Below are positions 3,412 to 37,818 of a DNA stretch of 37,818 nucleotides, one piece after another. Position 1 is the first letter of the stretch; every line of letters begins with the position of its first letter. Origin of the DNA: Chitinophagaceae bacterium (lineage in GTDB: Bacteria; Bacteroidota; Bacteroidia; Chitinophagales; Chitinophagaceae). The notes under the pieces are model-generated. The model did not search any database. It was not told the origin of the DNA and saw nothing but the letters and a program-made list of their open reading frames with translations. Location: positions 1 to 37,818 of the forward strand of contig JACVCQ010000001.1 in NCBI GenBank assembly GCA_016741945.1, read 5' to 3'. The position numbers were made by a program, and so were the translations under genes.

Positions 3412-3445
3412 AAAAGAGGAAATCGTGTTTTACGTTTCCTCTTTC
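3412..3445 (-). terminator. tmRNA terminator hairpin
   Basis: AAAGAGGAAA…TTTCCTCTTT stem just beyond the tmRNA 3' end, followed by a U-run on the minus strand. Confidence 0.65.
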
Positions 3446-3447
3446 AG

Positions 3448-3817
3448 TGGAGTCGAGGGGAGTCGAACCCCTGTCCAAACATCGCTACCATTAGCTTTCT
3501 ACATGCTTATTTCATGATTATTTGTCGGTGTATTGCAGGACACGAACAAACCAACAATACACTTAGCTGGATGGTCTTAAACAACAGTCACAGCCTTCTG
3601 TCGTAGCAACCTGTGTTTATTTTGAGTCGGCGGCGGCACCTGGTAACAGATCAACCTGTGCGGCGGCCCAAATGACTAACTAATCACTGATTAGGCAGCC
3701 ATGGCATACTGTGTATTGCCATTTGAAGTTTGAATATTCAGATTAAAGTGCTAATTATCCAACGCACTGCATGCTTACACCAACCGTACCATATGCTGTC
3801 AAAACCAGTACGACCCC
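3448..3817 (-). ncRNA. ssrA: tmRNA; tag peptide (A)GNTQYAMAA* at 3691-3720
   Basis: Minus-strand 5' end GGGGTCGTACTGGTTTTGACAGC, 3' end GGGGTTCGACTCCCCTCGACTCCA (T-arm, acceptor stem, CCA), and an internal tag ORF ending in AA*. Confidence 0.97.
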
Positions 3818-3925: not shown

Positions 3926-4550
3926 TCAGGTAGCCGGGATTTTTTTGTTGTAGACCTGATCTGGCGTTTTCATTTGAAGGGCTATATGGGGTCTTTTGTT
4001 GTTGTATAAAAATATACTTTCTCGAACTAATTGTTTGACCTGTTCTTTACTTTTCATTTTCCGATCCATCCCAAATTCTTCTTTTATGGTACGGTTCATC
4101 CTTTCGGCTAATGCATTTTCGTAAGGGTCTCCATTCTCTGTCATACTTAATTGAATGTTATTTTCTGCTGTCAATAATGCATATTCTTTACTACAATATT
4201 GCATTCCTCTATCTGAATGATGGATGGTTGCCATACTCGGGTTGTTTCGTTGAGTTACAGCCATATTCAAAGCTTTAATCATGCTTTGTGTTTCCATATT
4301 ATCTTCTATAGCATAGCCCATAATTTTTCTACTGTAGGCATCCGTTATCATATTCAAATAACAATTTCCCTGTTCAGTCTTTATGTATGTTATATCGCTT
4401 ACCCATATTTCATCCTGATGATTTGTTGTTTTCCCTTTGATACGATTAGGCCATTTCCTTAGCCAATGTTTACTCATGGTTGTTTGTGTGTAGCGTCTAC
4501 GGGGCTTGATTTGTAACCCATAATGACGCATTAAGTCAAAGAGCTTATCC
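3926..4550 (-). pseudogene. Outer IS3 orfB, 3' fragment (DDE catalytic core)
   Basis: WVSDITY, HHSDRGMQY, ENALAERMNRTIKEE; separated from its 5' part by the inner IS. Confidence 0.92.
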
Positions 4551-4602
4551 TGTCTAGTCCTGAAATAGGTTTACACCTAAAGTAAACCAAAAACAGGATT
4601 AT

Positions 4603-4989
4603 ATGGAACACAAACTAGAGATTCGTCAGATGTTTGATGAATCATTCAAACGAAAAGTGATTGAGGAGTATTTGTCAACAGGGCAATCCAAGACATCAAT
4701 TCAACGCAAGTACAATATCCATTTTAAGAGTGCCATTTGTACTTGGATGAAACGTTTAGGCTACATAGAAAAGGTTGAACAAAAGTGTAACTTAGCTTCT
4801 TTAAAACGAAGTATTTTGTCAAACAGCACGCCTAAGCCAACCAACGCTATTGATGCTGATAAGAGGATCAGAGACCTTGAACTACAGCTTGAGGATGCTA
4901 AATTGCAAGCTGAGGCTTATAAGCGAATTATTGAAAAGGCTGAAAAGGAACTAAATATCCCTATCAGAAAAAAGCACAATACCAAGTAA
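4603..4989 (+). CDS. IS3 transposase OrfA (HTH plus coiled coil)
   Basis: FDESFKRKVIEEY…ICTW HTH pattern; A-AAA-AAG slippery heptamer at 4968-4974. Confidence 0.92.
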   Translation: MEHKLEIRQMFDESFKRKVIEEYLSTGQSKTSIQRKYNIHFKSAICTWMKRLGYIEKVEQKCNLASLKRSILSNSTPKPTNAIDADKRIRDLELQLEDAKLQAEAYKRIIEKAEKELNIPIRKKHNTK

Positions 4990-4997
4990 TCAAAGAG

Positions 4998-5900
4998 ATG
5001 AAAGACAGTTATCCGTCGGTAAGCCTGATACGGCTCTGTCGGTTGCTTGGTGTTACTCGTCAGGCGTATTATCAGTTTTACTGGCACATTGAAGAGCTTC
5101 AAGTAGAAGAAGAATTAGTATTAAATGAAGTCAAAGAATTAAGGCGTATGCATCCAGCAATAGGTACTAGAAAACTCTATTGCATGCTTCAATCATTTCT
5201 TCTGGATCATCAGATTAAAATGGGCCGGGATGCTTTATTTAAACTAATGTCAGTTAATAAATTACTGGTAAGAAAACGTAAAAGAAAGATCAATACAACG
5301 CAATCTTATCATTGGTTTAAAAGATATCCTAGCTTGATTAAGTCATGGTATCCTGACGCCCCTAATCAGTTGTGGGTTGCAGATATAACCTACCTACCAG
5401 TGATAAACGGCTTTTTATATATCAGTTTAATTACCGATGCTTACTCACATAAAATTATGGGCTACTCAATAGGGGAAAGTCTTGAAGCTGTTCACACCAC
5501 AAAAGCACTTCAAATGGCGCTGAAGAATGAAGACCACCGCAATATTATTCATCATTCTGATCGAGGAATCCAATATTGCTCTTCAGAATATGTAACCATT
5601 TTACAAGAAAATGGTATTCGTATTAGTATGACAGAAAGTGGTGACCCATTAGAAAATCCAATTGCAGAAAGAATAAACGGGATATTAAAAGAAGAATATC
5701 TCAAGCATTATCACATTACAAACTACCAAGAAGCAACGAATCTGTTAACCTGCATTGTGGATCGTTATAATAACAAACGACCACATCAAAGTATCAATAT
5801 GCTTACTCCTGAAACTGTACATGAACAATCATTATTAGTTAATAGAAGATGGGGTAAATCCTCCTCTTTACCTAATATTGTAAAGCAACAACAGGATTAA
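4998..5900 (+). CDS. IS3 transposase OrfB (rve/DDE), fused to OrfA by a -1 frameshift
   Basis: WVADITY, HHSDRGIQY, ENPIAERINGILKEE; lies in the -1 frame relative to orfA and is open back to the slippery site. Confidence 0.95.
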   Translation: MKDSYPSVSLIRLCRLLGVTRQAYYQFYWHIEELQVEEELVLNEVKELRRMHPAIGTRKLYCMLQSFLLDHQIKMGRDALFKLMSVNKLLVRKRKRKINTTQSYHWFKRYPSLIKSWYPDAPNQLWVADITYLPVINGFLYISLITDAYSHKIMGYSIGESLEAVHTTKALQMALKNEDHRNIIHHSDRGIQYCSSEYVTILQENGIRISMTESGDPLENPIAERINGILKEEYLKHYHITNYQEATNLLTCIVDRYNNKRPHQSINMLTPETVHEQSLLVNRRWGKSSSLPNIVKQQQD

Positions 5901-5937
5901 GTAGAAAACTGTAAACTTATTTTAGGACGAGACATCC

Positions 5938-6206
5938 CGACCAAACCTCAGTCCATTCTCCTTTAGATCCTCTTTGATTAGATGATACACTTTACGGGTT
6001 CCAATTCTAGGCAGCTGTTTTCTCTCCCTATCCACTAGCTTTTTAACAGCCTCTAGTGCCAAGGTCTTTTTTACTCTATCTTTTTGCTGCTTGTACACAT
6101 TTTGACGACTGTAACCTAAGGCTAATGCTATTCTTCCGACGCTGTGTTCTCTTCTTTTTCCCCCTGTTTGTCGGAAGCTGCTTGTGACAGGGGTAAGAAC
6201 TTTTTT
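5938..6206 (-). pseudogene. Outer IS3 orfB, 5' fragment
   Basis: Translates …ALGYSRQNVYKQ…QLPRIGTRKVY…LRFGR; removing the inner IS and one TCC restores LRFGRDKLFDLMRHYG. Confidence 0.9.
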
Positions 6207-6532
6207 CTGATCTCAGTATTGAACATATCATCAGCAATATCTATGGCTCGATTTAATATCTCTTTCTCTGCTTCAAGCCGTTTGATCTTTGCTTCCAGTT
6301 GCGATATGTAAGTCTTGGGTGGAGCTTTCTTTTTCATGGGAGCTTTACTTGTCCAATCTAAAGTTCCGTGTTTTCTTAACCATACCAAAACTGTACTTCT
6401 TCCCTGGATACCATACTTCTTTTGACTCTGTTTCCAAGTTAAATGACCTTTTTCAACCTCATCAACTACCTGAAGTTTAAAGGATAAACTGTAGTCCTTT
6501 TGGGTTCTCTTTAAATGATTGATACTCATCAT
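6128..6532 (-). CDS. Outer IS3 transposase OrfA
   Basis: KRTQKDYSLSFKLQVVDEVEKG…YGIQGRSTVLVWLRKHG; A6G slippery site at 6200-6206 followed by a CCCCTGT…ACAGGGG stem. Confidence 0.93.
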   Translation of the reverse strand: MMSINHLKRTQKDYSLSFKLQVVDEVEKGHLTWKQSQKKYGIQGRSTVLVWLRKHGTLDWTSKAPMKKKAPPKTYISQLEAKIKRLEAEKEILNRAIDIADDMFNTEIRKKFLPLSQAASDKQGEKEENTASEE

Positions 6533-10112: not shown

Positions 10113-10179
10113 ACCACCATAGCTTTAGCGAAGGTGGTTAGCTAAAAAGCAACCCTCCTTCGCTAAAGCTACGGCGGGT
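10113..10179. repeat. Inverted pair of REP-like palindromes
   Basis: CCATAGCTTTAGCGAAGG faces CCTTCGCTAAAGCTACGG. Confidence 0.8.
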
Positions 10180-18400: not shown

Positions 18401-18405
18401 TAATT

Positions 18406-18438
18406 AGTCGATGGTCCATGGACCATGGTCTATGGACT
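18406..18438. repeat. Palindromic 7-mer array (RGTCCAT type)
   Basis: AGTCGAT GGTCCAT GGACCAT GGTCTAT GGACT. Confidence 0.85.
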
Positions 18439-18493
18439 GAAACAAGATGTTAAACATGCTTCCGGCCGAATCGGGAGTAACAAATAAAACAAA

Positions 18494-18844
18494 ATGGGTA
18501 AATTAATTCAAAGGCAAAAAATCAGATACCGCATTCGTAAGAAAGTGGCTGGTACAGCTGTTAAGCCACGCTTATCTGTATTCAGAAGCAATGCTGATAT
18601 TTATGCACAGTTGATCGATGATGATAATGGTCAAACACTGGCAGCAGCTTCATCTCGCGATAAAGATATCGCTGCTCAGAAAGTAACCAAGATCGAAAAA
18701 GCGAAACTGGTAGGTGCGGCAATCGCACGTAAAGCCACTGAACTGGGATTGAATACTGTAGTATTTGATCGTGGTGGTAATCTGTACCATGGCCGTGTTA
18801 AATCAGTAGCCGACGGTGCAAGAGAAGGTGGTCTGCAATTCTAA
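18494..18844 (+). CDS. rplR: 50S ribosomal protein L18
   Basis: PRLSVFRSN…VFDRGG…YHGRV…AREGGLQF. Confidence 0.99.
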
Positions 18845-18873
18845 TCTGCTAACAACAATTAATCGTTAGATAA

Positions 18874-19395
18874 ATGTCTAAAGTAAACGTAAATAAGGTA
18901 AAAGCCGGTGGCGACATGGAACTGAAAGAGAAAGTAGTTGCCATTAACCGTGTGGTGAAAACCACTAAAGGTGGACGTACCTTCAGCTTCTCAGCACTGG
19001 TAGTAGTGGGTAATGAAAGTGGTGTAGTTGGACAAGGTCTGGGTAAAGCAAAAGAAGTACAAGAAGCGATCACTAAAGGTATCGAAGATGCCAAAAAGAA
19101 TTTGGTGAAAGTACCTATCATGCATGGAACCATTCCTCACGATCAGTGGGCGAAAGATGGTGCTGCTAAAGTGCTGATTAAACCAGCTGCACATGGTGCG
19201 GGTGTGATCGCGGGAGGTAGCATGCGTGCTGTTCTGGAAAGTGCAGGTGTAACAGACGTACTGGCGAAAAGCCTGGGTTCTGCTAACCCTCACAACGTGG
19301 TAAAAGCCACCATCAAGGCGTTAAGCCTGTTGCGTGAACCCGTTCAGGTTGCTAAAACCCGTACGATCAAGCTGAGCAAAGTATTTAATGGATAA
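18874..19395 (+). CDS. rpsE: 30S ribosomal protein S5
   Basis: [23 protein letters not shown]…SLGSANP. Confidence 0.99.
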
Positions 19396-19407
19396 TCATT
19401 GGTTGTT

Positions 19408-19447
19408 AGTCCATAGTCCATGGTCCATGGTCTATGGACTATAGACT
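19408..19447. repeat. Palindromic 7-mer array (RGTCCAT type)
   Basis: AGTCCAT AGTCCAT GGTCCAT GGTCTAT GGACTAT AGACT. Confidence 0.85.
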
Positions 19448-19464
19448 AACTCAATAAAGTAGTT

Positions 19465-19647
19465 ATGAAAAAGATCAAGATCACACAGATTAAAAGCGGT
19501 ATCGACAGATCTGAGCGTCAAAAACAAACTTTGATCGCTTTGGGTTTGAAGAAATTGAATGCTTCAAGAGAAGTAGAAGCTACTCCTCAGATCCTGGGTA
19601 TGGTGAATAAAGTAAGCCACCTGGTGAAGGTTGAAGAGATCGCTTAA
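19465..19647 (+). CDS. rpmD: 50S ribosomal protein L30
   Basis: IKITQIKSGI…LGL…GMVNKVSHLV. Confidence 0.98.
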   Translation: MKKIKITQIKSGIDRSERQKQTLIALGLKKLNASREVEATPQILGMVNKVSHLVKVEEIA

Positions 19648-19815
19648 TCCAATCAGATAAGATAGAATTTGTTCCGTATCATATGGAATGAAAATGAGTC
19701 AATTTACTTGATTCATTTTCTGTTTATAAAAAATCAGAATTCTCTCTGTCACTGACAACACATTTTCAAATCATTTGCGAGGGGTGATTCCCCGAAAGTT
19801 CAAAATCAATACAAC

Positions 19816-20265
19816 ATGAAACTACACAATCTGAAACCTGCAGAAGGTTCTACACACAAGCAAAAACGTTTAGGTCGTGGTGAAGCATCCGGTAAGGGTG
19901 GTACATCTACAAAAGGTAACAAGGGTGGACAAAGCCGCGCGGGTTATAAGAGCAAGATGGCTCACGAAGGTGGTCAGATGCCTATACAGCGTCGTATCCC
20001 TAAGCGTGGATTCAAGAACAACAATCGTGTTGAATTCGTCGTATTCAACCTAGGTCAAATTGATCAATTGGTTGAGAAATATGGCTTCACTGAATTCAGC
20101 CTTGAAAATTTATACATCAATGGATTGATCAGCCGTACCGATAAAGTAAAAGTATTGGCCAACGGTGAACTGAAAGCTAAAGTATCTTTCAAAGTGAATG
20201 CAGCCAGCGAAAAAGCAAAAACTGCTATCGAAGCTGCAGGTGGTAGCGTTGAAATTATCAAGTAA
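19816..20265 (+). CDS. rplO: 50S ribosomal protein L15
   Basis: KRLGRG…EGGQMPIQRRIPKRGF…IEAAGG. Confidence 0.99.
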   Translation: MKLHNLKPAEGSTHKQKRLGRGEASGKGGTSTKGNKGGQSRAGYKSKMAHEGGQMPIQRRIPKRGFKNNNRVEFVVFNLGQIDQLVEKYGFTEFSLENLYINGLISRTDKVKVLANGELKAKVSFKVNAASEKAKTAIEAAGGSVEIIK

Positions 20266-20342
20266 TTTTTTCGTAACTTGCCAGACGCACAACGTGCGTC
20301 TTTTTTTGGTTTAAGACTATTAACGCTTACAATTGCATTCAA

Positions 20343-21692
20343 GTGAAAAAACTAGTTCAGACATTAAGGAATATTTGGACGATAGAGGAGCTTCGTAACA
20401 AGATCATTATTACACTTGCACTGGTTCTTACTTATCGTTTTGGTACCCACATCGTATTGCCGGGTATTGATCCTAATAAAATTGAAGAAGCACAGAAATC
20501 TGCCCAAAGTGGGGGTGGTTTGTTAGGCATCTTCGATATGTTCGCAGGTGGTGCCTTTTCTCAGGCATCTATATTGGCACTCGGTATCATGCCCTATATC
20601 TCTGCTTCTATCTTCATGCAACTGATGACTATCTTAGTTCCTCAGTTACAGAAAGTTCAAAAAGAAGGAGATAGCGGACGTAAAAAAATCAATCAGTGGA
20701 CACGTTACCTCACCGTAATCGTGACTGCATTTCAGGCAGGTGCATATGTTGCCTACCTGAACAGTCCGGGTTACGCTGAAGCGATCATGCCTGCTTATGC
20801 ACCTTACTTCTGGTTCTCTACTGTTATTACCTTAACAGCCGGTACCATGTTTGTAATGTGGCTGGGCGAAAAAATTCAAGACAAAGGTTTGGGTAATGGT
20901 ACATCTATCATCATCATGGTTGGTATCCTTGCTCGTCTTCCTCAGTCTTTGATTCAGGAGTTTAGCGCGAAAGGTGAAAGAGCCGGTGGTGGTTTGTTGA
21001 TCTTCTTGATCGAGATCGCTATTCTGATCGCTATCATCCTTGGATTGATCGTATTGGTTCAAGGTGTTCGTAAAATACCCGTAAACTATGCTAAGCAGAT
21101 CATTGGCAACCGTCAGTTCGGTGGTGCTCGTCAATTCTTGCCTATCAAAGTAAACAGCGCCGGTGTAATGCCGATCATCTTCGCTCAGGCGATCATGTTC
21201 TTGCCTACACTCGTATCATTTACCAATCTTGATTCTGCTCAGGGTATCGTGAAGATCTTCAACGATCATAGCAATACTTGGTATATGGTGATCTACTCAA
21301 TCATGGTAATCGGATTTACTTTCCTTTACACTGCATTGATCTTTAATCCTAAACAAATTGCAGAAGACCTGAAACGTAACAACGGTTTTATTCCAGGTGT
21401 AAAGCCCGGACAACCCACTGCTGATTATATTGGATCTGTCATGGATAGAATTACTTTACCGGGTGCTATCTTCTTAGCATTGGTAGGTATCATGCCAGGA
21501 TTCGCTCAGCGCTTAGGTGTTACGCAAGGATTCAGCACTTTCTTTGGTGGTACTTCATTGCTCATTATGGTAGGTGTGGTATTGGATACACTACAGCAAA
21601 TCGAAACATACTTGTTGATGCGTCAATATGATGGACTGATGAAAGGTGGTCGTATACAAGGCAGACAGACTGTTTCTACAACAACGATTTAG
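20343..21692 (+). CDS. secY: Preprotein translocase subunit SecY
   Basis: GTG start; SILALGIMPYISASI, GLGNGTS, GFIPGVKPG, FGGTSLLI. Confidence 0.99.
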   Translation: MKKLVQTLRNIWTIEELRNKIIITLALVLTYRFGTHIVLPGIDPNKIEEAQKSAQSGGGLLGIFDMFAGGAFSQASILALGIMPYISASIFMQLMTILVPQLQKVQKEGDSGRKKINQWTRYLTVIVTAFQAGAYVAYLNSPGYAEAIMPAYAPYFWFSTVITLTAGTMFVMWLGEKIQDKGLGNGTSIIIMVGILARLPQSLIQEFSAKGERAGGGLLIFLIEIAILIAIILGLIVLVQGVRKIPVNYAKQIIGNRQFGGARQFLPIKVNSAGVMPIIFAQAIMFLPTLVSFTNLDSAQGIVKIFNDHSNTWYMVIYSIMVIGFTFLYTALIFNPKQIAEDLKRNNGFIPGVKPGQPTADYIGSVMDRITLPGAIFLALVGIMPGFAQRLGVTQGFSTFFGGTSLLIMVGVVLDTLQQIETYLLMRQYDGLMKGGRIQGRQTVSTTTI

Positions 21693-21696
21693 TTTT

Positions 21697-21728
21697 AGAC
21701 CATGGTCCATGGACCATAGACCATGAAC
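21697..21728. repeat. 7-mer array (RGACCAT type)
   Basis: AGACCAT GGTCCAT GGACCAT AGACCAT GAAC. Confidence 0.8.
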
Positions 21729-21746
21729 AAAAAGTACGATATTTGC

Positions 21747-26612: not shown

Positions 26613-26728
26613 GGGAAACAGAGAAATAAGAAACAGAGGAATAAGGAATAAGAAAGTAATTGTGAGAATCAACTACTTTCTTATTCCTTATTTTTTATTC
26701 CATATTTCTTATTTCTTATTTCTTATTC
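26613..26728. repeat. Inverted 7-mer arrays forming a long hairpin, possibly also a terminator
   Basis: AATAAGGAATAAGAAAGTA (26640-26658) pairs perfectly with 26674-26692; TTCTTAT x3 follows. Confidence 0.8.
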
Positions 26729-26785: not shown

Positions 26786-27214
26786 ATGAGAAAAGTAAGT
26801 AATGTATTACAACGCAAAGGAAACAGAGTAACTACCGTTCCGCCAGAGATGACGGTGATTGATGCATTGAAGCTGATGGCTGAACAAAATATTGGTTCAG
26901 TTGTGGTGATGAAGGAAGAGAAATTCGCCGGTATTATGACGGAACGCGATTATTCCCGTAAAGTAATATTGAAAGGGCGCCATTCCAGTGAAACAAATGT
27001 AGGAGAGATCATGACCACTGATTTTCCTTATGTGGCGATGAATGATACGGTAGAATCTTGCATGCAATTAATGACTTCTCACCGATTGAGATATTTACCG
27101 GTGATTGAAGATGAACAATTGGTGGGAATTATTTCGATCAATGATCTGGTAACAGAAACGATCTTAACGCAGGCTGAAACGATTAATCAGTTGCAGAGTT
27201 ATATACAGTCCTAG
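26786..27214 (+). CDS. CBS domain pair protein
   Basis: MAEQNIGSVVV…GIMTERDYSRKV…RLRYLPV…GIISINDLV. Confidence 0.93.
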   Translation: MRKVSNVLQRKGNRVTTVPPEMTVIDALKLMAEQNIGSVVVMKEEKFAGIMTERDYSRKVILKGRHSSETNVGEIMTTDFPYVAMNDTVESCMQLMTSHRLRYLPVIEDEQLVGIISINDLVTETILTQAETINQLQSYIQS

Positions 27215-30342: not shown

Positions 30343-30678
30343 CTACAGATCCAATACAATCATCAAATTCTTTTTTAGTAATTGAACTTGATCTTGGTTC
30401 AGTTTACCGATTCTTTGTATTAATCTTTTATTATCAATAGCCCTGATCTGGTCAATGAGAACATCACTGAGTTGATTCAGTTGCGATTTTTTTAAGTGAA
30501 TACGAAGAATATTCATCTTAGGTTGAATATTGGTGGTGATAGGACAAACAATCGTTGATAGATTTGAATCATTCAACAGATCCGTTTGCACAATAACAAC
30601 AGGTCTGGTTTTACCCGGCTCTGTTCCTTTACCCGGATTCAGATTGGCTAGCCATATATCATATTGCTTAATCTTCAT
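30343..30678 (-). CDS. PemK/MazF family toxin
   Basis: IWLANLNPGKGTEPGKTRPVVIVQ…DQIRAIDNKRL; ATG at 30678 overlaps the antitoxin stop. Confidence 0.93.
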   Translation of the reverse strand: MKIKQYDIWLANLNPGKGTEPGKTRPVVIVQTDLLNDSNLSTIVCPITTNIQPKMNILRIHLKKSQLNQLSDVLIDQIRAIDNKRLIQRIGKLNQDQVQLLKKNLMIVLDL

Positions 30679-30898
30679 CAGCCAGTTTTTCAAACTCACG
30701 TAAGATGTTCATGGACTCTTTTCTCGTAAGGGCAGATTCTTTTGCGAGAGCATGCTTCAATAATTTTCTCTGATGATACCGATTGTAGAGATCTACCGCT
30801 TCATTGATATAGCGATTACGGGCTATGTTCAACTGCGCAGTGATGGCTTCAGCTTCTTCGAATGTATGGTCATCCAGTTTGAGTGATAAAGTTTTCAT
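30668..30898 (-). CDS. Putative ribbon-helix-helix antitoxin (76 aa)
   Basis: MKTLSLKLDD…ARNRYINEAV RHH-like pattern; acidic tail; coupled upstream of the toxin. Confidence 0.85.
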   Translation of the reverse strand: MKTLSLKLDDHTFEEAEAITAQLNIARNRYINEAVDLYNRYHQRKLLKHALAKESALTRKESMNILREFEKLADED

Positions 30899-30903
30899 AC
30901 CAT

Positions 30904-30938
30904 TACTTTTGGTAAAGGTATATACTTTTGGTGTATAC
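30904..30938 (-). promoter_or_regulatory. Putative TA promoter/operator
   Basis: Palindromes GTATATAC (30918-30925) and GTATAC (30933-30938); direct repeat TACTTTTGGT x2; -7-like TACCTTTA on the minus strand. Confidence 0.55.
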
Positions 30939-31013
30939 TCAGTAGGGGGTAGTTGTTCCATGGCATTGATTGTAATGTGAAATATTCAGTAGTGCCGAAA
31001 ATAGTGATACATC

Positions 31014-31400
31014 CCATCGTATTTACCGCCAATTTGATGAGTAGTTCGTTGACTACATTTCAAGTGAAGTGAATAACCTTCTAACTGCAGATCCTTCGTC
31101 GCAATTTCCGACTTCGTCGGAATGCTCCTCAGGATGACAACGACAAGGGACATCAACTTGCTGTGTTGGCGAAGCCAACACAGCGTTAACACACAACACT
31201 GAACCGTCATCCTGAGGAGCATTGATCACGCAAGTGATCATCTGCGACGAAGGATCTGACCAGTATAGGGAGTTTTATGGTTATAGGAAAGAAGTAAATA
31301 GTACACCTAAGCTGTGTAACACGCATAGTCCCCTCGTACCTCGGGAGGCATCTGCGACGAACTTTTTTATTTGTAAGACTTTATGGAGAAGGAAGTATGC
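31014..31400. repeat. Modular palindromic repeat, copy A (complete)
   Basis: Left segment shared with copy B; long foldback CAGATCCTTCGTCGCA…ATGCTCCTCAGGATGAC / GTCATCCTGAGGAGCAT…TGCGACGAAGGATCTG; tail of about 140 bp shared with B, C and D. Confidence 0.92.
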
Positions 31401-31419
31401 TGTTGAGCATACAAGAGAC

Positions 31420-31587
31420 CTATCCTTCAGATTGTAGTTTCTTTATTTCAGAAAGATCTACGTTGCGCATGGCTTCATTGGCTTTATCGACTTTCTCCTG
31501 AAATAGTGGCATGTCATTATATTGATCCAAAGATTGGTCAATTGTAACAACAGTCGATTTGATATGATACAATTCCTTTTGTTCCAT
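31420..31587 (-). CDS. Small protein (55 aa) missed by the ORF track, coupled to the upstream gene
   Basis: MEQKELYHIKSTVVTIDQSLDQYNDMPLFQEKVDKANEAMRNVDLSEIKKLQSEG*; ATG 1 nt after the upstream TAA. Confidence 0.75.
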   Translation of the reverse strand: MEQKELYHIKSTVVTIDQSLDQYNDMPLFQEKVDKANEAMRNVDLSEIKKLQSEG

Positions 31588-31588
31588 G

Positions 31589-32041
31589 TTATAAAGATAG
31601 TTTTTTTCTTGTGATCAAAAATGCTTCGTAGGGTTCATTTTCTTTGAAGTGTTCCAGTATACTATCCTTCCATCCAAATAAATAAAAGTCACGTTTTATA
31701 GCAGGCAGATATTTTGTTATACCGATTCTATACAAACGCGTACGACTTTTTGTACTTCCTGATGCATACACACAGACATTCGGATATGTATTAGTAAAAA
31801 TATAAAGCGTCCGTACAACTGTGGCCAAGACTAACTCACTGTCAGCGTTATTTGAAATGATGCTGTCATTAATGTCTCCTTTTTCGTTTACCTTATCACC
31901 AAAAGCAAGATTGTACAGACCATTATCGTTAAGTTTGGTGTATTTAACAAGTTTAATAATCGACCCTTTAGGTCCAACACTGGTAAACTCAAATACCATT
32001 AATGAAGTGGAAGACTTCAATGGATATGCAGTGAGGTTCAT
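31589..32041 (-). CDS. DUF6934-like protein (150 aa)
   Basis: FEFTSVGPKG…YNLAFGD…SNNADSELVLATV…GST-x-SRTRLY; family recognised from memory; ATG at 32041. Confidence 0.75.
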   Translation of the reverse strand: MNLTAYPLKSSTSLMVFEFTSVGPKGSIIKLVKYTKLNDNGLYNLAFGDKVNEKGDINDSIISNNADSELVLATVVRTLYIFTNTYPNVCVYASGSTKSRTRLYRIGITKYLPAIKRDFYLFGWKDSILEHFKENEPYEAFLITRKKLSL

Positions 32042-32098
32042 TTCTGGCGCTTTGGAAAAATGAGTAATGATGGTGGCTTCCAAAAATGCTTGCTTTGT

Positions 32099-32435
32099 CC
32101 ATCGTATTTCCCGCAAATTTGATGAACAGGTGGTTGACTTTGTTTCAAGTGAAGTGATAAGAAAGATCGCTCAGCAGTGTTGGCAAAGCCAACACTGCTT
32201 GAACACCCCATCACGATAATGTCATCCTGTCCAAAGGACTCCCGCGGAGAGGAGCATTGATCACGCAAGTGATCATTTGCGACGAAGGATCTGACTATTA
32301 TGGGTGTTTTATGGCTATCTGGAGAAGTAAAACTAAGTAGTACAACTTAGCTGTCTAACACGCAGAGTCCCCTCGTACCTCGGGAGACATCTGCGAAGAA
32401 CTTTTTTATTTATGAGACTCTTCGGAGAATGAAAG
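32099..32435. repeat. Modular palindromic repeat, copy B (lacks the left arm)
   Basis: Shares CCATCGTATTT…TTTCAAGTGAAGTGA, the central hairpin, TGATCACGCAAGTGATCA, GCGACGAAGGATCTGAC and the tail. Confidence 0.9.
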
Positions 32436-32501
32436 ATTGTGATGATGAAGACCATAGACAAGTATTCAAAAATAGATTCATGTATCGTCTAATTTTAATA
32501 C

Positions 32502-32672
32502 CATTGATCATGCAAGTGATCATCTGTAATGAAGAATCAGATCGTTTTGTTAAGTTCTATTACAATCGGAATGGAGCAAAACTAAATATTACATTTAGCT
32601 GTGTAACATGCAGGCCCCCTCATGTCTCGGCAGACATCTGTAGTAATTTTATTTATAAGAATCTGTGGAGAT
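32502..32672. repeat. Modular palindromic repeat, copy C (degenerate right half)
   Basis: CATTGATCATGCAAGTGATCATCTG…AAAACTAAATA…TTAGCTGTGTAACA…GACATCTG…TGTGGAGA. Confidence 0.8.
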
Positions 32673-32751
32673 GTTATAAATACATCAATTAGACACATAC
32701 TCTATTGCGTATATGTTTAACTGTATAAATGGAGGGATGATTAATCAATTT

Positions 32752-33606
32752 TTATCTATTAAACTCATGTTGATAATCCTTAACAAATTCATGAAATGCA
32801 ATAGGTTTCCTTTGTAATAAAAATTCTAGGTCAGGTGTAACAGTTTTAAAATAATTTAATTTGATGTAGCTGTAGAGAACTGCTAAAAAATCAACCATCG
32901 GTTGGGGAATGCCAAAGTCATATAATGTTTGTTTATACTCTTCTTCAGTAGGATTGACATTTTGAATCGGTCGACCCAGTACTGTTGTAAATATCTCAGC
33001 CATTTTTTTATGGGAAAGGGCTTCGGCTCCTGTAATGGAATAGGTTTTTCCATAATGGGGATGAGGATATTCAAATACATTCGCAATAGCTTGTGCAACA
33101 TCTCTGATATCGTTGTAAGAAGTAGTACCATCACCGGTAGGTAAGTAGATCATACCTTTTTTTATAGCCCATAAATCGTAATTGATAAAATTTTGAAAAA
33201 TAAAATTAGGTCGCATAATCGTATAAGGAATTCCAGATTCTTTGAGAGCTTTTTCAGCTTTGTAATGTGAACTATTCGGATTAGCATCGGCTCCTAATAC
33301 AGTCGTTAATACAATGTGCTCAACTGAATATTCCTTCGCCTTTAGTAAAAGCGGGATAATTTGTTCTGAAAATTGATGAGAACCTGATGGTGCCACCAAA
33401 TAAATAGACTTCACCCCTTCTAAAAGCTGATCAAAGCTGGAAGGATCATTTAAATCATACTTAGTTGTGATGACTTCCTTTCCTAATATTTCTTTTAACT
33501 TCTCGGTATGATCAAAACTTGCAGCTTTGATCGCAATGCCTTTTTTGAGTAGCGCTTTAGCTATATTGTTCCCGAATGTTCCTGTTGCACCTGTTACTAA
33601 AATCAT
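32752..33606 (-). CDS. NmrA-like / atypical SDR NAD(P)H-binding oxidoreductase
   Basis: MILVTGATGTFG, H-x2-AE-x2-L, RPNFIFQN, DIRDVA. Confidence 0.9.
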   Translation of the reverse strand: MILVTGATGTFGNNIAKALLKKGIAIKAASFDHTEKLKEILGKEVITTKYDLNDPSSFDQLLEGVKSIYLVAPSGSHQFSEQIIPLLLKAKEYSVEHIVLTTVLGADANPNSSHYKAEKALKESGIPYTIMRPNFIFQNFINYDLWAIKKGMIYLPTGDGTTSYNDIRDVAQAIANVFEYPHPHYGKTYSITGAEALSHKKMAEIFTTVLGRPIQNVNPTEEEYKQTLYDFGIPQPMVDFLAVLYSYIKLNYFKTVTPDLEFLLQRKPIAFHEFVKDYQHEFNR

Positions 33607-33659
33607 GATTATTTTTTTTGAAGTGTAAAAGTATTTTGGATAGTTTAGTTTTGAAATTT

Positions 33660-33704
33660 GTTACCTTATTGTAACAGAAGAAAAACTAGTTACCATAAGG
33701 TAAC
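33660..33704. promoter_or_regulatory. Two GTTAC-N6-GTAAC palindromes, probable HxlR operators
   Basis: 33660-33675 and 33689-33704, in the divergent nmrA-hxlR spacer. Confidence 0.7.
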
Positions 33705-33717
33705 CAATTCACATACT

Positions 33718-34032
33718 ATGGAAAGTGTACATGATTTTTGCCCGGTTTCAAAAACCCTATCTTATATCGGTGGTAGGTGGAAGGTGGTGATTTTATTTTA
33801 CTTACAACATGGAAAAAGAAGATTTGGGGAAATCTCGGCACGCATACCCAATATATCAAGGAAAGTGTTAACCGAACAATTAAAAGAATTAGAGACAGAT
33901 GGACTGATTCAACGTACATCTTTTAAAGAAGTACCTCCAAGGGTAGAGTATTCCATTACTGCGCTCGGATTAAGTCTTAATAAGGTTTTAAAAGAGATGG
34001 AAGTATGGGGATTTGAACACAGGGGTTTATAG
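33718..34032 (+). CDS. HxlR-family winged-helix regulator
   Basis: CPV…IGGRWKVVIL…LTEQLKELE-x-DGL…VPPRVEYS; ATG at 33718. Confidence 0.93.
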   Translation: MESVHDFCPVSKTLSYIGGRWKVVILFYLQHGKRRFGEISARIPNISRKVLTEQLKELETDGLIQRTSFKEVPPRVEYSITALGLSLNKVLKEMEVWGFEHRGL

Positions 34033-34136
34033 TTAAGTCAAAATTTAATCGTCTTCATTATAGTCAAAGAATAAAGCTGCTTTATTGATGCTTGTTTGAA
34101 TAGAATAACTTGGTTACAAAAGGCATCAGCAAGTGT

Positions 34137-34256
34137 TTTAATTATGGCGAATTCGCCATAATTAAAATGGGGTTTACTGACGGTTTCCCAACTGCCAAGG
34201 AATTCAATGGTATTTATGTTTCTTAGCCAATCAGAAATAAAGAAATCGCCATCCTT
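34137..34256 (-). pseudogene. Internal fragment of a KilA-N domain gene
   Basis: KDGDFFISDWLRNINTIEFLGSWE…FNYGEFAIIK, about 40 aa only, abutting repeat copy D. Confidence 0.75.
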
Positions 34257-34586
34257 CGTCGCAATTTCCGACTTCGTCGGAATGCTTCCTTCATTACATT
34301 CAGGATAAACCTCAGGATGACAACGACAAGGGACATCAACTTGCTGTGTTGGCTTCGCCAACACAGCGTTAACACACAACACTGAACCGTCATCCTGAGG
34401 AGCATTGATCACGCAAGTGATCATCTGCGACGAAGGATCTGACCATTATGGGCGTTTTATGGCTATAGGAGAGAAGCAAAACTAAATAGTACATCTTAGC
34501 GGTGTAATGCACAGAGTCCTCTCGTACCTCAGAGACATTTCGGAGAACTTTTTATTTATGAGACTTTGTGGAGAAGGAAAAGTATG
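34251..34586. repeat. Modular palindromic repeat, copy D
   Basis: Core nearly identical to copy A, apart from a 23-bp insertion (34287-34309) and an inverted central loop. Confidence 0.92.
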
Positions 34587-34598
34587 AAATCGGATTTC

Positions 34599-35270
34599 TT
34601 ACTCTATTTGATATCTCAAAAAAACGCCAAAGTTTTCAAATGTTTCTTTATTCATTCCAAATTGAGAAAAATCTGCACCTACACCAAACTGAAATTTTTG
34701 CTTATAGTTAAGTCCTATTCGAAAAAGCTGATTGCTGATGTTATGCTGTGTAAAAATATTCAAAATTTCTCGTTGTTGATTCGGGTATTTATTCTGTATA
34801 CCCAAATTTGTACCTGCTATTAACTGAGAGAATATCCCCCATTTTTTATTGAATTGTGGGGAATAGTTTATCAAAGTAAAAAAATCTAACGCAATTGGCT
34901 TTACCAATTGAACCATAGGAAATGCACTGATTGAAAAATCTTCCTTTTTGTTAAGATATCCAAACGATAGTCCCAAGGTGGGAATAAATTCAGTACCGTC
35001 AAACCCACCTCCACCGGACACTCCCAGCCAATTATTAAATTGGTAGGTTAATTGCCCTTCAATTGAAATTGTATTTTGGGTTTTGTCTTTATAATGAATA
35101 GCATAGAGGCTTTGAGAAAATATATTCCATCTACCTATACTGTCTAAGTCTTTTTGTATATATGCATAATAAAGCGTTTGTTTATTACCTGCCATTACTT
35201 CAAAAGGAATTTGGGCAGAAGTATGCTGAATAGTCATTATAAAAATGACTATAAAAATTTTTAATTTCAT
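34599..35270 (-). CDS. Hypothetical exported, beta-strand-rich (outer-membrane-like) protein
   Basis: Signal peptide, alternating amphipathic strands, C-terminal FGVFLRY. Confidence 0.75.
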   Translation of the reverse strand: MKLKIFIVIFIMTIQHTSAQIPFEVMAGNKQTLYYAYIQKDLDSIGRWNIFSQSLYAIHYKDKTQNTISIEGQLTYQFNNWLGVSGGGGFDGTEFIPTLGLSFGYLNKKEDFSISAFPMVQLVKPIALDFFTLINYSPQFNKKWGIFSQLIAGTNLGIQNKYPNQQREILNIFTQHNISNQLFRIGLNYKQKFQFGVGADFSQFGMNKETFENFGVFLRYQIE

Positions 35271-35353
35271 CTTTCAAAAAGTTTGATATTTTTTTACGAT
35301 TATGAAAAAGCTAGATAATTATGAATTAGGGTTTTTATTGAGTAAAGCAAAAC

Positions 35354-36670
35354 CTAGCTTAATTCATGTAGAACCTGAATGGCGGAATCGATAGCCCCAT
35401 GAACGGTGCCATAATCTTTTTTGGTATTCATTGCTTCGCCTGCAAAAAATACTTTATTGTTGATCGGTTTTCTTGCGATTTCTCTTGCTGATGTACCACC
35501 TGGTTTCGTATAGCTATAAACGCCATTTATATAAGATTCTGCTCCCCAATCCTGTGCTAATCTATCAATGTAGTATTTAGAGGCTCTGCCATCGAAAATG
35601 GTATCCAACTCTCTTAAATAGTTTTCAATCGCTTTTCTAGGGTTGTCATAGTACATATCTGCTTTCACCCCCATCACTAGAGAAGTTAAGAGACTTTGAG
35701 AAGAACCCCCCTTTTTTGTTGGGTCAATATAGTAACCAGCGTATTTTCCATTGAATATACTGTGATTAAAAAACTGTTTCTCGAATTTTAGAAAAAGTTT
35801 CAAGCCCTTATCCATACCAATGAACTCGAATGCCTTTTTCTTATCAGTTGGTAGTTCAGGAGCAAAATCTATATTATCAGATTTTAGTATGGTAATTGGA
35901 ATCGTAATGATAATTTTATCAAACTCATAACTTTTGTTTTCAGCATTGAAAACCTTTATTAAAGAGCCAGTATAATCTATACTTCTTACAGGGAAGTTAT
36001 ATACAATTTCATCTTTCAATCTATCAACAAATCTTTTTTGAATAAAACCATACATCGTGGTATTTGTGAATTGATAATCTACAGGATCAAGCTGTTTTGT
36101 CATCATTGAAATTTCATTGGCTGAAAAATTTTCCGCTTTAGTTGTTGTATCGGTTAATACGTTCTCAATTAACTCTAAAAAGTTTGTGTCATTGTTGAAT
36201 TGCTTTGCATAATGTAAAACAGAAATATCATTTTTCAATGGTGTTTTGAGCTGTAAACTTTTTATAAATTCATAAAACTCTGATGGAAAATCATCTAAAA
36301 GCAACCCTTTATATAAGACTTTGATTGACTTATTTTTTTTATCAACATAAACTGGAGTTTTACTTTTCTTAGTGAGTTTATATAATTCATTATCATGCCC
36401 GTGTATCCACTGTGCTCCTAAATCAATCGGACTTGAAAAAAAAGACTTATTTTCATAAATTCTACCTCCTGCTCTGTCTTTGGCTTCAAGAACTATAACT
36501 TCATGTCCTTGTCTTTTGAGCATATCGGCTAAATACAAACCTGATATACCAGCTCCAATGACTCCAATTGTTTGATTTGGGTTCTTATTTGCTTGAAAAG
36601 CAACACTTGGAACTAAAGAAGCACTTAATCCTAATAAGGATATGCTTTTAATAAATTCTGCTCTATTCAT
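35354..36670 (-). CDS. Flavin monoamine oxidase family protein with a Tat-like leader
   Basis: IGAGISGL, EAKDRAGGR, DLGAQWIHG, FFAGEA, TVHGAI; leader MNRAEFIK; ATG at 36670. Confidence 0.9.
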   Translation of the reverse strand: MNRAEFIKSISLLGLSASLVPSVAFQANKNPNQTIGVIGAGISGLYLADMLKRQGHEVIVLEAKDRAGGRIYENKSFFSSPIDLGAQWIHGHDNELYKLTKKSKTPVYVDKKNKSIKVLYKGLLLDDFPSEFYEFIKSLQLKTPLKNDISVLHYAKQFNNDTNFLELIENVLTDTTTKAENFSANEISMMTKQLDPVDYQFTNTTMYGFIQKRFVDRLKDEIVYNFPVRSIDYTGSLIKVFNAENKSYEFDKIIITIPITILKSDNIDFAPELPTDKKKAFEFIGMDKGLKLFLKFEKQFFNHSIFNGKYAGYYIDPTKKGGSSQSLLTSLVMGVKADMYYDNPRKAIENYLRELDTIFDGRASKYYIDRLAQDWGAESYINGVYSYTKPGGTSAREIARKPINNKVFFAGEAMNTKKDYGTVHGAIDSAIQVLHELS

Positions 36671-36760
36671 ACTACTGCGTATCAAAATTTAATTTCTTAA
36701 CTGATTAAATAACGAGAATAATGACAGCAGCAAAGGTTTGAATAAGAATTCGGAATTTTT

Positions 36761-36796
36761 TTGAGCTAAATCAAAAAATGATTTGATATAGATCAA
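36761..36796. promoter_or_regulatory. Tandem Crp/Fnr-type boxes upstream of the oxidase
   Basis: TTGAT-ATAG-ATCAA (36783-36796) and TTGAG-CTAA-ATCAA (36761-36774); -7-like AACCTTTG on the minus strand at 36731-36738. Confidence 0.75.
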
Positions 36797-36807
36797 AAAA
36801 TTATTTT

Positions 36808-37383
36808 TTATAATTTTCCTGATCTGATACGACTTAATGTTTCTTGTGTGATGTTTAGATAAGATGCAATATGTCCTAAATTGATTCGATTACCAATATT
36901 TGGAAATTGTATTAAGAGTTTCTCATAGCGTTGTTTGGCAGTAAGAAATTGTAAATCAGTTACTCTATCTTCAATTTGAGTAATATAATACTTTTCTATT
37001 AATTTAATATACCAAAGCGAGAAGGAATGGTGTTGTTGAAGTAAATGATAGAGATGACTATTCTCAATTGCGTACAATTCACTGTCTTCTAATAGTTGTA
37101 TGCTTTCAGTAGAGGGCTTTTGACTTACGAAACTTGGAGCATCTGCTACAATATCATTATCAAAAGAAAACCACACGTTACTTTCTTTACCAGTTTCATC
37201 GGAAAATGTATAGCGAGCTGCACCTTTAACTAAAACCCAAAGATATTTACATGGCCTTCCTTGTTTCAATAAATAATAATTTTTTGGGTATTCCTTGTAT
37301 TGAAAATGAAGTAAGACATCATCCAAAATTTGGTAAGGAAGTGGGTAAATACTATTGATAAAATTTGAAAAATCTGCTTTCAT
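36808..37383 (-). CDS. Crp/Fnr family transcriptional regulator
   Basis: cNMP-binding-like N-terminal domain; TAKQRYE…IASYLNITQETLSRIR HTH. Confidence 0.93.
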   Translation of the reverse strand: MKADFSNFINSIYPLPYQILDDVLLHFQYKEYPKNYYLLKQGRPCKYLWVLVKGAARYTFSDETGKESNVWFSFDNDIVADAPSFVSQKPSTESIQLLEDSELYAIENSHLYHLLQQHHSFSLWYIKLIEKYYITQIEDRVTDLQFLTAKQRYEKLLIQFPNIGNRINLGHIASYLNITQETLSRIRSGKL

Positions 37384-37654: not shown

Positions 37655-37818
37655 ATGAACATTTTTCGTAAACAATTAAACGCAGATGCTCAGGACAACG
37701 CGGGTACGCCCGAAGTTGATACTGCGACAACAAATGCACCTGAAGTTGCGCCGATCGTTGAGACAGCGCATGATGATTTTGACTGGAGCATTGACAAGCG
37801 TAATGTGGATCACTATGT
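37655..37818 (+). CDS. rpsA: 30S ribosomal protein S1, N-terminus (runs off the window)
   Basis: MNIFRKQLNADAQDNAG…ETAHDDFDWSIDKRNV, resembling Bacteroidota S1 N-termini (DDFDW); strong promoter upstream. Confidence 0.8.
   Translation, partial: MNIFRKQLNADAQDNAGTPEVDTATTNAPEVAPIVETAHDDFDWSIDKRNVDHY

Follow-up and report, generated by a model that had tools for sequence, protein, structure and literature searches.

An array of accessory genes upstream of an rpsA-like gene in a Chitinophagaceae genome, partitioned by repeats that match the ends of RAYT elements

The subject of this report is a 37,818-nt stretch of DNA from a Chitinophagaceae bacterium (assembly GCA_016741945.1, contig JACVCQ010000001.1, positions 1-37,818; hereafter the window), in which positions 30343-37383 hold an array of accessory genes partitioned by four copies of a modular palindromic repeat. 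As judged by comparison with related genomes, each copy is the left (upstream) end of a Bacteroidota element of the RAYT/TnpA-REP type (RAYT, REP-associated tyrosine transposase; REP, repetitive extragenic palindrome), together with all or part of a CGTC-type REP. We favour, with moderate confidence, the explanation that the array is a variable hotspot in which a RAYT acting from elsewhere built units headed by its own end, through one-ended strand transfer of single-stranded DNA (ssDNA), and it is likely from these comparisons that the enzyme copied and shuffled the cargo genes somewhat as an integron does. The compared loci demonstrate a fixed outer end, a loose partner site of the TT type, duplication and truncation directed downstream, and the gain, loss and permutation of cargo. 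The genome that holds the window (G000; below, G numbers denote genomes, C numbers their contigs and L numbers sequence stretches, for example L170 from G303, L212 from G025 and L162 from G109) is 90% complete and has its closest relatives in Sediminibacterium. The comparisons drew on 281 genomes of the genus and 151 genomes of the order.

The four copies, designated A to D, form one repeat family (D1), located in the same orientation at positions 31214, 32249, 32496 and 34397 of the window. Copies A and D have 143 nt in common at 97% identity, and the BLAST matches between copies, all with E values of 3e-13 or better, extend over 340 nt for A and D (83%), 186 nt for A and B (86%) and 176 nt for A and C (70%). 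When set against shuffled sequences, copies A and D fold well beyond chance (z = -9.1 and -7.0). Repeat family, BLAST and folding thus bear out the four co-oriented copies reported in an earlier, sequence-only reading of the window. The closeness of the tails to stop codons noted there also stands, with its distances of about 20, 80 and 12 bp for A, C and D refined to 27, 78 and 21 bp; the outer ends were redrawn by a junction rule at 31392 (A), 32431 (B), ~32674 (C) and 34577 (D). A promoter-like head is present additionally in copies A and B. The modules are dispersed on other contigs of G000: arms of the CGTC type occur 19 times on nine contigs (34 matches on 13 contigs with a looser pattern), and there are eight further tail-like matches on seven other contigs. 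An Rfam scan of the array returned nothing relevant, the one match in the window being a tmRNA at 3445-3817.

The identity of the tail was indicated by the flanks of RAYT genes. The window tails align over their full length with the upstream flanks of the RAYT genes in L103 and L104, the alignment covering the outer half-site, the spacer, the hairpin and the start of the leader, and by this comparison the window tail is identical in kind to RAYT flanks; in L040, the tail hairpin flanks an open reading frame (ORF) that matches NF047646. Relatives of this cognate RAYT are present in 34 of the 281 genus genomes and in 23 of the 151 genomes of the order, and inspection by eye showed the hairpin flanking the gene as an inverted pair at 28 of 30 RAYT loci of the genus, while contig ends truncate the remaining two. 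The RAYT proteins match NF047646 with E values of ~1e-18 to 1e-20 (65-73 bits, below the 80-bit equivalog cut-off) and have the HUH and catalytic Tyr motifs, with NH[LIV]H in 41 and Y[IMV]HxNP in 57 of 60 proteins and a C-terminal SS in both proteins inspected for it. At the W position of the subclass 2.6 consensus, 44 of the 60 have FE and four have WQ or WE. The genes lie in a Bacteroidota host, and the atypical (non-GTAG) hairpins beside them recur at other places in the genome. The host and, less clearly, the motifs, as compared with the accessible part of the subclass description cited below, fit a subclass 2.6-like RAYT/TnpA-REP as the enzyme of the tail element, except for FE in place of WQ. 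Searches with PF01797 are uninformative here because they miss the cognate RAYT of G305, and there was no sequence match in the PDB either. The earlier suggestion of an enzyme acting in trans, with an HUH RAYT as one of the candidates, fits the match between tails and RAYT flanks. Upstream of most RAYT genes stands GGTATAAACCGCAA, which is reverse-complement-like to TTTGCGGnAAATAC, a motif of the head discussed below.

A first search for the tail matched merely 2 of 61 genomes because BLAST with a 146-nt query is insensitive. The exact tail pattern was found at 14 loci among genome contigs, 12 of which are titled Sediminibacterium or Bacteroidota, while the other two overlap each other and bear a different label; it was also found at 31 distinct loci (32 rows) in metagenomes, and a search of viral contigs gave no match. 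In L042 and L049, Sediminibacterium-like genes and repeats stand on a contig titled as an alphaproteobacterial genus, probably a mislabelled bin. The RAYT gene can itself be a member of such arrays, as it is in the gene/end-pair array of L170, where four of the ends follow a stop codon by 8-15 bp; in L037 and L040, about ten same-direction genes, most of them with an end behind, lead to a RAYT and a REP cluster. RHS-type loci in L170 (5900-11400, G303), L168 (7500-15000) and L162 have small downstream genes each bracketed by pairs of RAYT ends, the distance from stop codon to the following end being 8-15 bp and that from the other end to the start codon 4-50 bp; the RAYT is among the members.

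Part of the evidence for the favoured explanation comes from the junctions at which these ends meet other DNA. Conservation halts sharply 6 nt outside the CTCCGCAG motif (75 ends). The set contained 71 unique junctions, or 106 once metagenome loci were added, and 19 of the 71 have an uninterrupted homologue; 14 of these 19 were joined after TT, versus 6.8 expected (P ~0.001). In 16 of 105 junctions, an intact second copy of the 45 nt that precede the end was present 84-5433 bp downstream, compared with 4 of 201 and 13 of 200 in shifted controls and 7 of 106 in an upstream control. In L046, the 5' piece of a 93-aa ORF is followed by an end, a KilA-N cassette and the whole ORF, the duplicated unit being 1.4 kb; the 5' part of a permease is duplicated in L039 and that of the RAYT gene in L105 and L106. 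The 70 bp that separate C from B in the window represent the leader of a protease cassette, and B truncates the cassette of C; positions 32432-32607 are 84% identical to L046:4283-4459, and the whole protease cassette, its gene matching PF13650, is present in L046. Most full-length ends (39 of 47) are turned towards the stop codon of a gene in the same orientation, with 14 of them no more than 30 bp away, and several are placed on terminator-like T-tracts.

These junctions bear on the simpler alternative raised by the sequence-only reading, namely that one gene-plus-repeat block was duplicated in tandem and its cargo then replaced, without a site-specific enzyme. The common direction of all copies and the near identity of A and D over their shared 143 nt would agree with such an origin, and duplications do occur and are partly the proposed mechanism itself; however, they are anchored at the element end, the copies within the window are only 70-84% alike and older than the species split, and these ends also stand before genes in several unlinked hotspots and on either side of RAYT genes. 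The ends of the duplications are not random, and the fixed end point largely refutes this alternative, which we hold to be highly improbable.

The interval in which the array lies extends from a conserved CBS-domain gene to a putative rpsA gene, so named in the sequence-only reading. We compared 20 stretches upstream of rpsA, mostly the best of 223 matches, of which 14 extend to the CBS gene; eight of the 14 have at least one module and two are empty (278 and 677 bp). Cargo content is different in every close relative. KilA-N stands before mazEF in G000 and L084 and after it in L046 and L215; homologues of mazEF have 86-93% amino acid identity in L082, L083, L084, L215 and L227 and 89% DNA identity in L046; the KilA-N scrap of the window matches the intact KilA-N gene (PF04383) of L046 at 91% over 124 nt; and the DUF6934 gene and its 55-aa companion also stand behind a unit in L089 and in environmental contigs. 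At a second hotspot, beside a gene that is presumably feoB-like, a 1593-nt amidohydrolase block (92.7%) starts at an element end in both L165 and L238 and stops ~20 bp past its stop codon, its order relative to a 233-aa gene being swapped between the two, and genes of 238 and 355 aa are exchanged between L165 and L251. PADLOC models were matched by 11 of 24 cargo proteins tested and by none of the four window cargo proteins tested. The comparison of the interval between the CBS gene and rpsA, of a kind proposed earlier as a test, found content and order to differ between relatives, with breakpoints that do not all fall on the repeat; the repeats do bound gains, losses and re-orderings of cargo, as their interpretation as gene-capture sites had implied, and that interpretation is limited by the off-repeat breakpoints and by variation of the hotspot where no repeat is present.

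The process that we envisage would begin with a RAYT that nicks ssDNA twice, once at the fixed outer end and once at a more distant TT, and rejoins the two. Its product would be a tandem copy or a circle of the end with the downstream gene or genes, formed in a rolling-circle-like manner as modelled for the bacterial interspersed mosaic elements (BIMEs) of E. coli. Selection might then favour units whose cut lies shortly past a stop codon, T being abundant in the sense strand there; the CGTC/GIY-YIG REP would nest inside the unit later; and homologous recombination between units of 150-380 bp might reshuffle the cargo after loss of the enzyme. The tail hairpins of A and D fold no better than shuffles (z = 0.2 and +1.3), from which the array in G000 looks frozen, and it is probably also decaying. 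Joints that appear to go back, found in four environmental contig sets, fit hybrid units and not circles.

A remnant of the RAYT, consisting of the last ~60 nt of the gene and the right end, is present in G000 on contig C544 (positions 285-1346; L288), where it follows a RAYT left end and a lone T4 gp19-like tail-tube gene (PF06841). The right-end module is a mobile piece whose neighbouring genes differ among five relatives, which makes this a third hotspot, and the gp19-like gene occurs in G175 without it. A reading of C544 as a hollow REPtron, with cargo replacing the RAYT, was downgraded in view of those five relatives. A RAYT-like gene on contig C218 was rejected as the cognate enzyme, given its 29-33% identity, different flanks and position at a contig end.

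Several observations weigh against the construction of the array by a RAYT. Among the runs examined, which were contigs of other strains, there was no sign of activity, circles or polymorphism within a species. Searches for the cognate RAYT gave no match in G000, at its 90% completeness, nor in the array-bearing genomes G175 (one contig), G299, G304 and G105; G109, which also bears an array, has the enzyme at another locus (L162). Four of the 14 CBS-reaching stretches, from more distant relatives, hold other cargo without a repeat, the breakpoints of the hotspot on the rpsA side lack a repeat, and further off-repeat breaks lie at the 3' ends of mazF and of the KilA-N scrap in the window and at the 5' edge of the shared 93-aa ORF. 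Five of the 19 junctions are without TT, and the excess of TT is weakened because the T-rich end favours chance microhomology and because a TT-containing pattern located the junctions, which are not independent of one another. Among the 16 duplications, several merely repeat the leader that belongs to the element itself. The end-gp19-end arrangement on C544 may be two independent one-ended units, because the right-end module adjoins other genes in the five relatives, and need not reflect capture of a chromosomal gene de novo.

The variability without repeats, the repeat-free breakpoints beside rpsA and the survival of arrays in genomes where the enzyme was not found would be accommodated by a passive hotspot, in which ordinary homologous and microhomology exchange operates, REPs pile up in the T-rich spacers behind stop codons and serve RecA, and the RAYT moves its own ends alone. 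Such a hotspot would also agree with the 88-89% identity of unit B to units of G109 and G285 that head other genes, at a core gene identity of 88-91%, and with the varying pairing of units and cargo, as recombination between units predicts. Against it, gene-sized duplications and truncations start exactly at the outer end and are joined to non-homologous sites in genes, and junctions of this kind are not produced by RecA exchange between units; moreover, the 19 junctions with an uninterrupted homologue mostly did not look like clean two-ended insertions. We regard the passive hotspot as unlikely, yet deserving of serious attention, and continue to prefer one-ended transfer by a RAYT.

The inner module of the repeat is, by its sequence, a CGTC-type REP, a kind known to flank small GIY-YIG genes. 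All 19 arms in G000 start with CGTC or TGTC, as the search pattern largely demanded, and head-to-head dimers were observed. GIY-YIG genes beside this module, of the kind that the sequence-only reading had suggested looking for, were found and account for the inner palindrome: the dimers flank a frameshifted GIY-YIG gene on G000 contig C1 (6339-7104), a possibly intact one at the end of contig C304 and an intact one in L165 (site 1774-2860; gene 2180-2485, PF01541, E 2e-13), and at these sites the dimer loops are replaced by nested hairpins, as in a variant of an Ssn-like element. The nuclease gave weak structure matches to UPF0213, and the published SRM pattern had no match in the window and three in the G000 genome.

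Based on these associations, a GIY-YIG (Ssn-like) nuclease and the CGTC REP dimer might drive the array if the nuclease cut next to the inner palindrome and promoted recombination there. The dimer is the largest and most stable module, GIY-YIG genes of G000 and G304 lie between copies of it (the gene on G000 contig C304 being possibly intact), the KilA-N scrap breaks at its foot, and SsnA cleaves ssDNA beside such hairpins, according to the accessible part of PMC11893778. In the more distant L089, however, four cassettes are headed by units that consist of end, link and head, each without a CGTC REP, which points to an ancestral unit that lacked this REP and to its probable nesting at a later time; moreover, the RAYT end alone is used in the arrays of L037/L040, L170, L165 and L238, and a joining activity is not described for Ssn. 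We consider a nuclease-driven array improbable and retain the RAYT as the favoured agent.

The head of copies A and B is read as a promoter because TTTGCGGnAAATAC also precedes unrelated genes. In relatives, the head precedes mazE, DUF6934, KilA-N, Abi-like and PDC-S02 genes, and five different cargo leaders follow TTTGCGGnAAATAC. The motif lies at about 31019-31029 and 32104-32114 on the minus strand of the window and on G000 contigs C137, C121, C28 and C109; it is also intergenic in G000, before an ssb-like gene and others. It stands before mazEF, KilA-N and Abi-like genes and before genes that we take to be ssb-like, ORF6N-like and four-helix-bundle-like, and heads with TTTGCGGnAAATAC possibly constitute a class of regulated promoters. 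An attI-like reading of the head was rejected, since TTTGCGGnAAATAC also precedes unrelated genes such as the ssb-like one. The head resembles the right-end feet in L170 and might be a worn right end.

Table 1. Features of the array and its borders in the window
Feature	Position	Strand	Basis or remarks
CBS-domain gene, conserved left anchor of the hotspot	26786-27214	+	Family search, relatives
mazF/PemK toxin, 111 aa	30343-30678	-	PF02452, E 3e-29; in hotspots of six relatives
Putative antitoxin ORF, 97 aa, overlapping mazF	30668-30961	-	Always paired with mazF in relatives
Unit A head, promoter-like, ending in TTTGCGGnAAATAC	31014-31072	-	Cargo leaders diverge beyond the motif
Unit A inner CGTC-type REP dimer	31089-31257	.	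Arms 31089-31139 and 31205-31257; central hairpin 31160-31184; z = -9
Unit A RAYT left end	31258-31392	-	Leader-derived link, REP hairpin 31322-31356, outer half-site to 31392
DUF6934 gene (31589-32041) and 55-aa ORF (31420-31587)	31420-32041	-	PF22028, E 5e-50
Unit B	32099-32431	-	Head 32099-32157; central hairpin 32174-32198
Unit B inner part	32220-32292	-	Single CGTC arm with nested 20-nt hairpin insert
Unit B RAYT left end	32339-32431	-	Hairpin 32361-32395, best preserved of all, z = -2.05
Aspartyl-protease cassette leader	32432-32501	-	Truncated at CTTT, where it meets the unit B outer end
Unit C	32502-32674	-	RAYT left end (degenerate), link, one partial CGTC arm; 70-71% to A, B and D
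Divergent pair: NmrA-like (32752-33606, -) and HxlR (~33718-34032, +)	32752-34032	.	PF05368, PF01638
KilA-N gene, internal scrap	34133-34256	-	One break at the foot of the unit D CGTC REP, the other at no repeat
Unit D	34251-34577	-	CGTC REP dimer with 23-nt insert 34251-34440; link; RAYT left end 34489-34577
223-aa secreted-type ORF, flavin amine oxidase, Crp-like regulator	34599-37383	-	rpsA-proximal block; 5' side without element end
rpsA-like gene start, right anchor	37655-37818	+	Conserved in 223 of 281 genus genomes

Family and DNA matches support the names given earlier to the cargo listed in Table 1 (PemK/MazF, DUF6934, NmrA, HxlR, amine oxidase, Crp and the KilA-N scrap). For what had been called a Crp/oxidase/outer-membrane-protein operon, the first two labels are upheld by matches to cNMP_binding and Amino_oxidase; the third is unsupported, the 223-aa ORF having no Pfam or NCBIfam match. 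An accessory island of G025 (L212) likewise has the 223-aa and Crp genes, there without repeats. The 97-aa ORF, which had no family match in profile searches, is presumed to be the antitoxin of MazF, and the head of unit D is gone together with the 5' part of KilA-N.

Other small repeats and mobile elements accompany these features. Mini-hairpins of 20-23 nt are nested in REP stems at about 32230-32249 and 34288-34310 of the window and in L214, L170 and L086, and the same mini-hairpin inserts recur in both REP families across species. The hairpin family GGAAAGTTCCGAAACTTTCC often directly adjoins RAYT ends (L089, L050, L002, L248 and G000 contigs C541 and C544). Two opposite-facing IS3-family elements lie directly after the tmRNA (3926-6532), and a near-identical IS3 is inserted into RAYT ends in L002/L039, L037 and L255. 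Further small families at 18405-21736, 26640-26728 and 10114-10177, between ribosomal-protein and neighbouring genes, include 7-mer palindromes of the GGTCCAT type, tandem arms of the TTCTTAT type and the CTTTAGCGAAGG hairpin.

In its outward appearance, the array resembles a cluster of attC sites lacking an integron integrase (CALIN), and an integrase-less array with atypical attC sites would account for same-direction accessory, toxin-antitoxin (TA) and defence-type genes separated by hairpins just behind stop codons, as well as for the 11 PADLOC matches. However, no RYYYAAC...GTTRRRY pair was found within 200 nt behind any of seven cargo stops, no IntI above the TIGR02249 cut-off was found in five genomes, and the repeat is a RAYT end; this explanation appears extremely improbable. 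The absence of an integrase reported by the sequence-only reading is confirmed for G000 at the same cut-off, and the integron analogy drawn there holds for the re-ordering of cargo and fails for attC-like core sites and IntI. Integrons are rare in Bacteroidetes (IntegronFinder 2.0, 10.1101/2022.02.28.482270, accessible part). With sedentary integrons and CALINs, as described in the accessible sources, the array shares one-direction accessory, TA and defence genes and ssDNA hairpins near stops that are shuffled between strains; unlike them, it has no IntI, attI or attC core, its unit may bring its own promoter, and cuts often fall inside genes.

The earlier surmise of an undescribed system is not supported, in that the parts are of described kinds (ends of RAYT subclass 2.6 and CGTC REPs). 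Subclass 2.6 of TnpA-REP/RAYT corresponds to Bertels group 5 and to REPtrons of Bacteroidetes (Quentin et al. 2018, PMC6006769). As far as the accessible part of that paper goes, the likeness extends to the Bacteroidota host, the ~190-aa Y1 HUH protein, the NH[LV]H, YxHxNP and SS motifs and the atypical non-GTAG flanking hairpins that recur elsewhere in the genome; most proteins here differ in having FE instead of the consensus WQ, and bipartite ends, a target site, cargo arrays and end-anchored duplication are not described there for subclass 2.6. Two of its supplements were searched and gave no match. The CGTC REPs (Di Nocera et al. 2013, PMC3733652) and the SRM repeats that flank Ssn GIY-YIG nucleases (PMC11893778) share with the inner module, in the accessible parts of both papers, the CGTC or TGTC start, the head-to-head dimers and the flanking of ~95-aa single-domain GIY-YIG genes, and differ from it in that here the loop is a nested hairpin, the strict SRM pattern is unmatched and the module is nested in a RAYT end. 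In the E. coli model, BIMEs arise by a nick at a dinucleotide away from the REP and rolling-circle-like amplification or ssDNA circles (PMC3333891; Corneloup et al. 2021, PMC8266576; accessible parts), and Ton-Hoang et al. (2012) already proposed that flanking genes or gene fragments could be sequestered by REPs (PMC3333891, section 25). The E. coli REPs, as presented there, are GTAG-footed and cut at C/T, in contrast to the lack of GTAG, the fixed end point and the apparent TT target found here, and unlike BIMEs the present units form multi-gene same-direction arrays at fixed hotspots, in an order that varies between species.

Within the literature searched, in which coverage of subscription journals is thin, we found no description of RAYT-end cassette arrays, of the end structure or TT junction of this RAYT group, of a nested RAYT/CGTC unit or of RAYT-bounded permutation across several species, and accessible work on RAYTs, REPINs and cargo gave no link of cargo to REPs. 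A preprint on TnpA-REP and the expansion of lanthipeptide genes, which withdrew its causal claim, is cautionary (10.1101/2020.03.09.984088, accessible part). The host benefit of RAYTs and the spread of REPs are an open question on which the present locus bears. The comparative evidence is that whole genes, among them TA and defence-type genes, are copied, truncated and re-ordered by the ends, and the locus and its relatives offer a precise, testable substrate in the fixed outer end, the TT junction and the sequences of cognate proteins. If the RAYT moves cargo, it would provide an integrase-free route to cassette arrays in an integron-poor phylum; if it does not, the case would illustrate how REP ends can mimic attC arrays and mislead readers of genomes. 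That subclass 2.6 RAYTs are the Bacteroidota analogue of integrons, which excise, circularise and re-insert end-headed cassettes by means of the fixed hairpin end and a loose TT, is a possibility that we hold to be on balance doubtful; were it true, TA, Abi, defence and immunity cassettes would be shuffled at hotspots, and the resulting host benefit might explain the persistence of RAYTs.

In the one-ended rolling-circle transposition of IS91/ISCR and in gene capture by Helitrons, the HUH enzyme uses a single fixed end and takes up neighbouring DNA as far as a loosely defined second site. IS91 and ISCR have a Y2 transposase of the Rep type; the present units differ from them in the Y1 RAYT, in an enzyme gene that usually lies outside the unit and in ends that are inverted hairpins. 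Both kinds of element are named in the accessible part of PMC3333891. The array is built from parts of known kinds and would work partly as an integron array does and partly as in the one-ended capture of IS91/ISCR.

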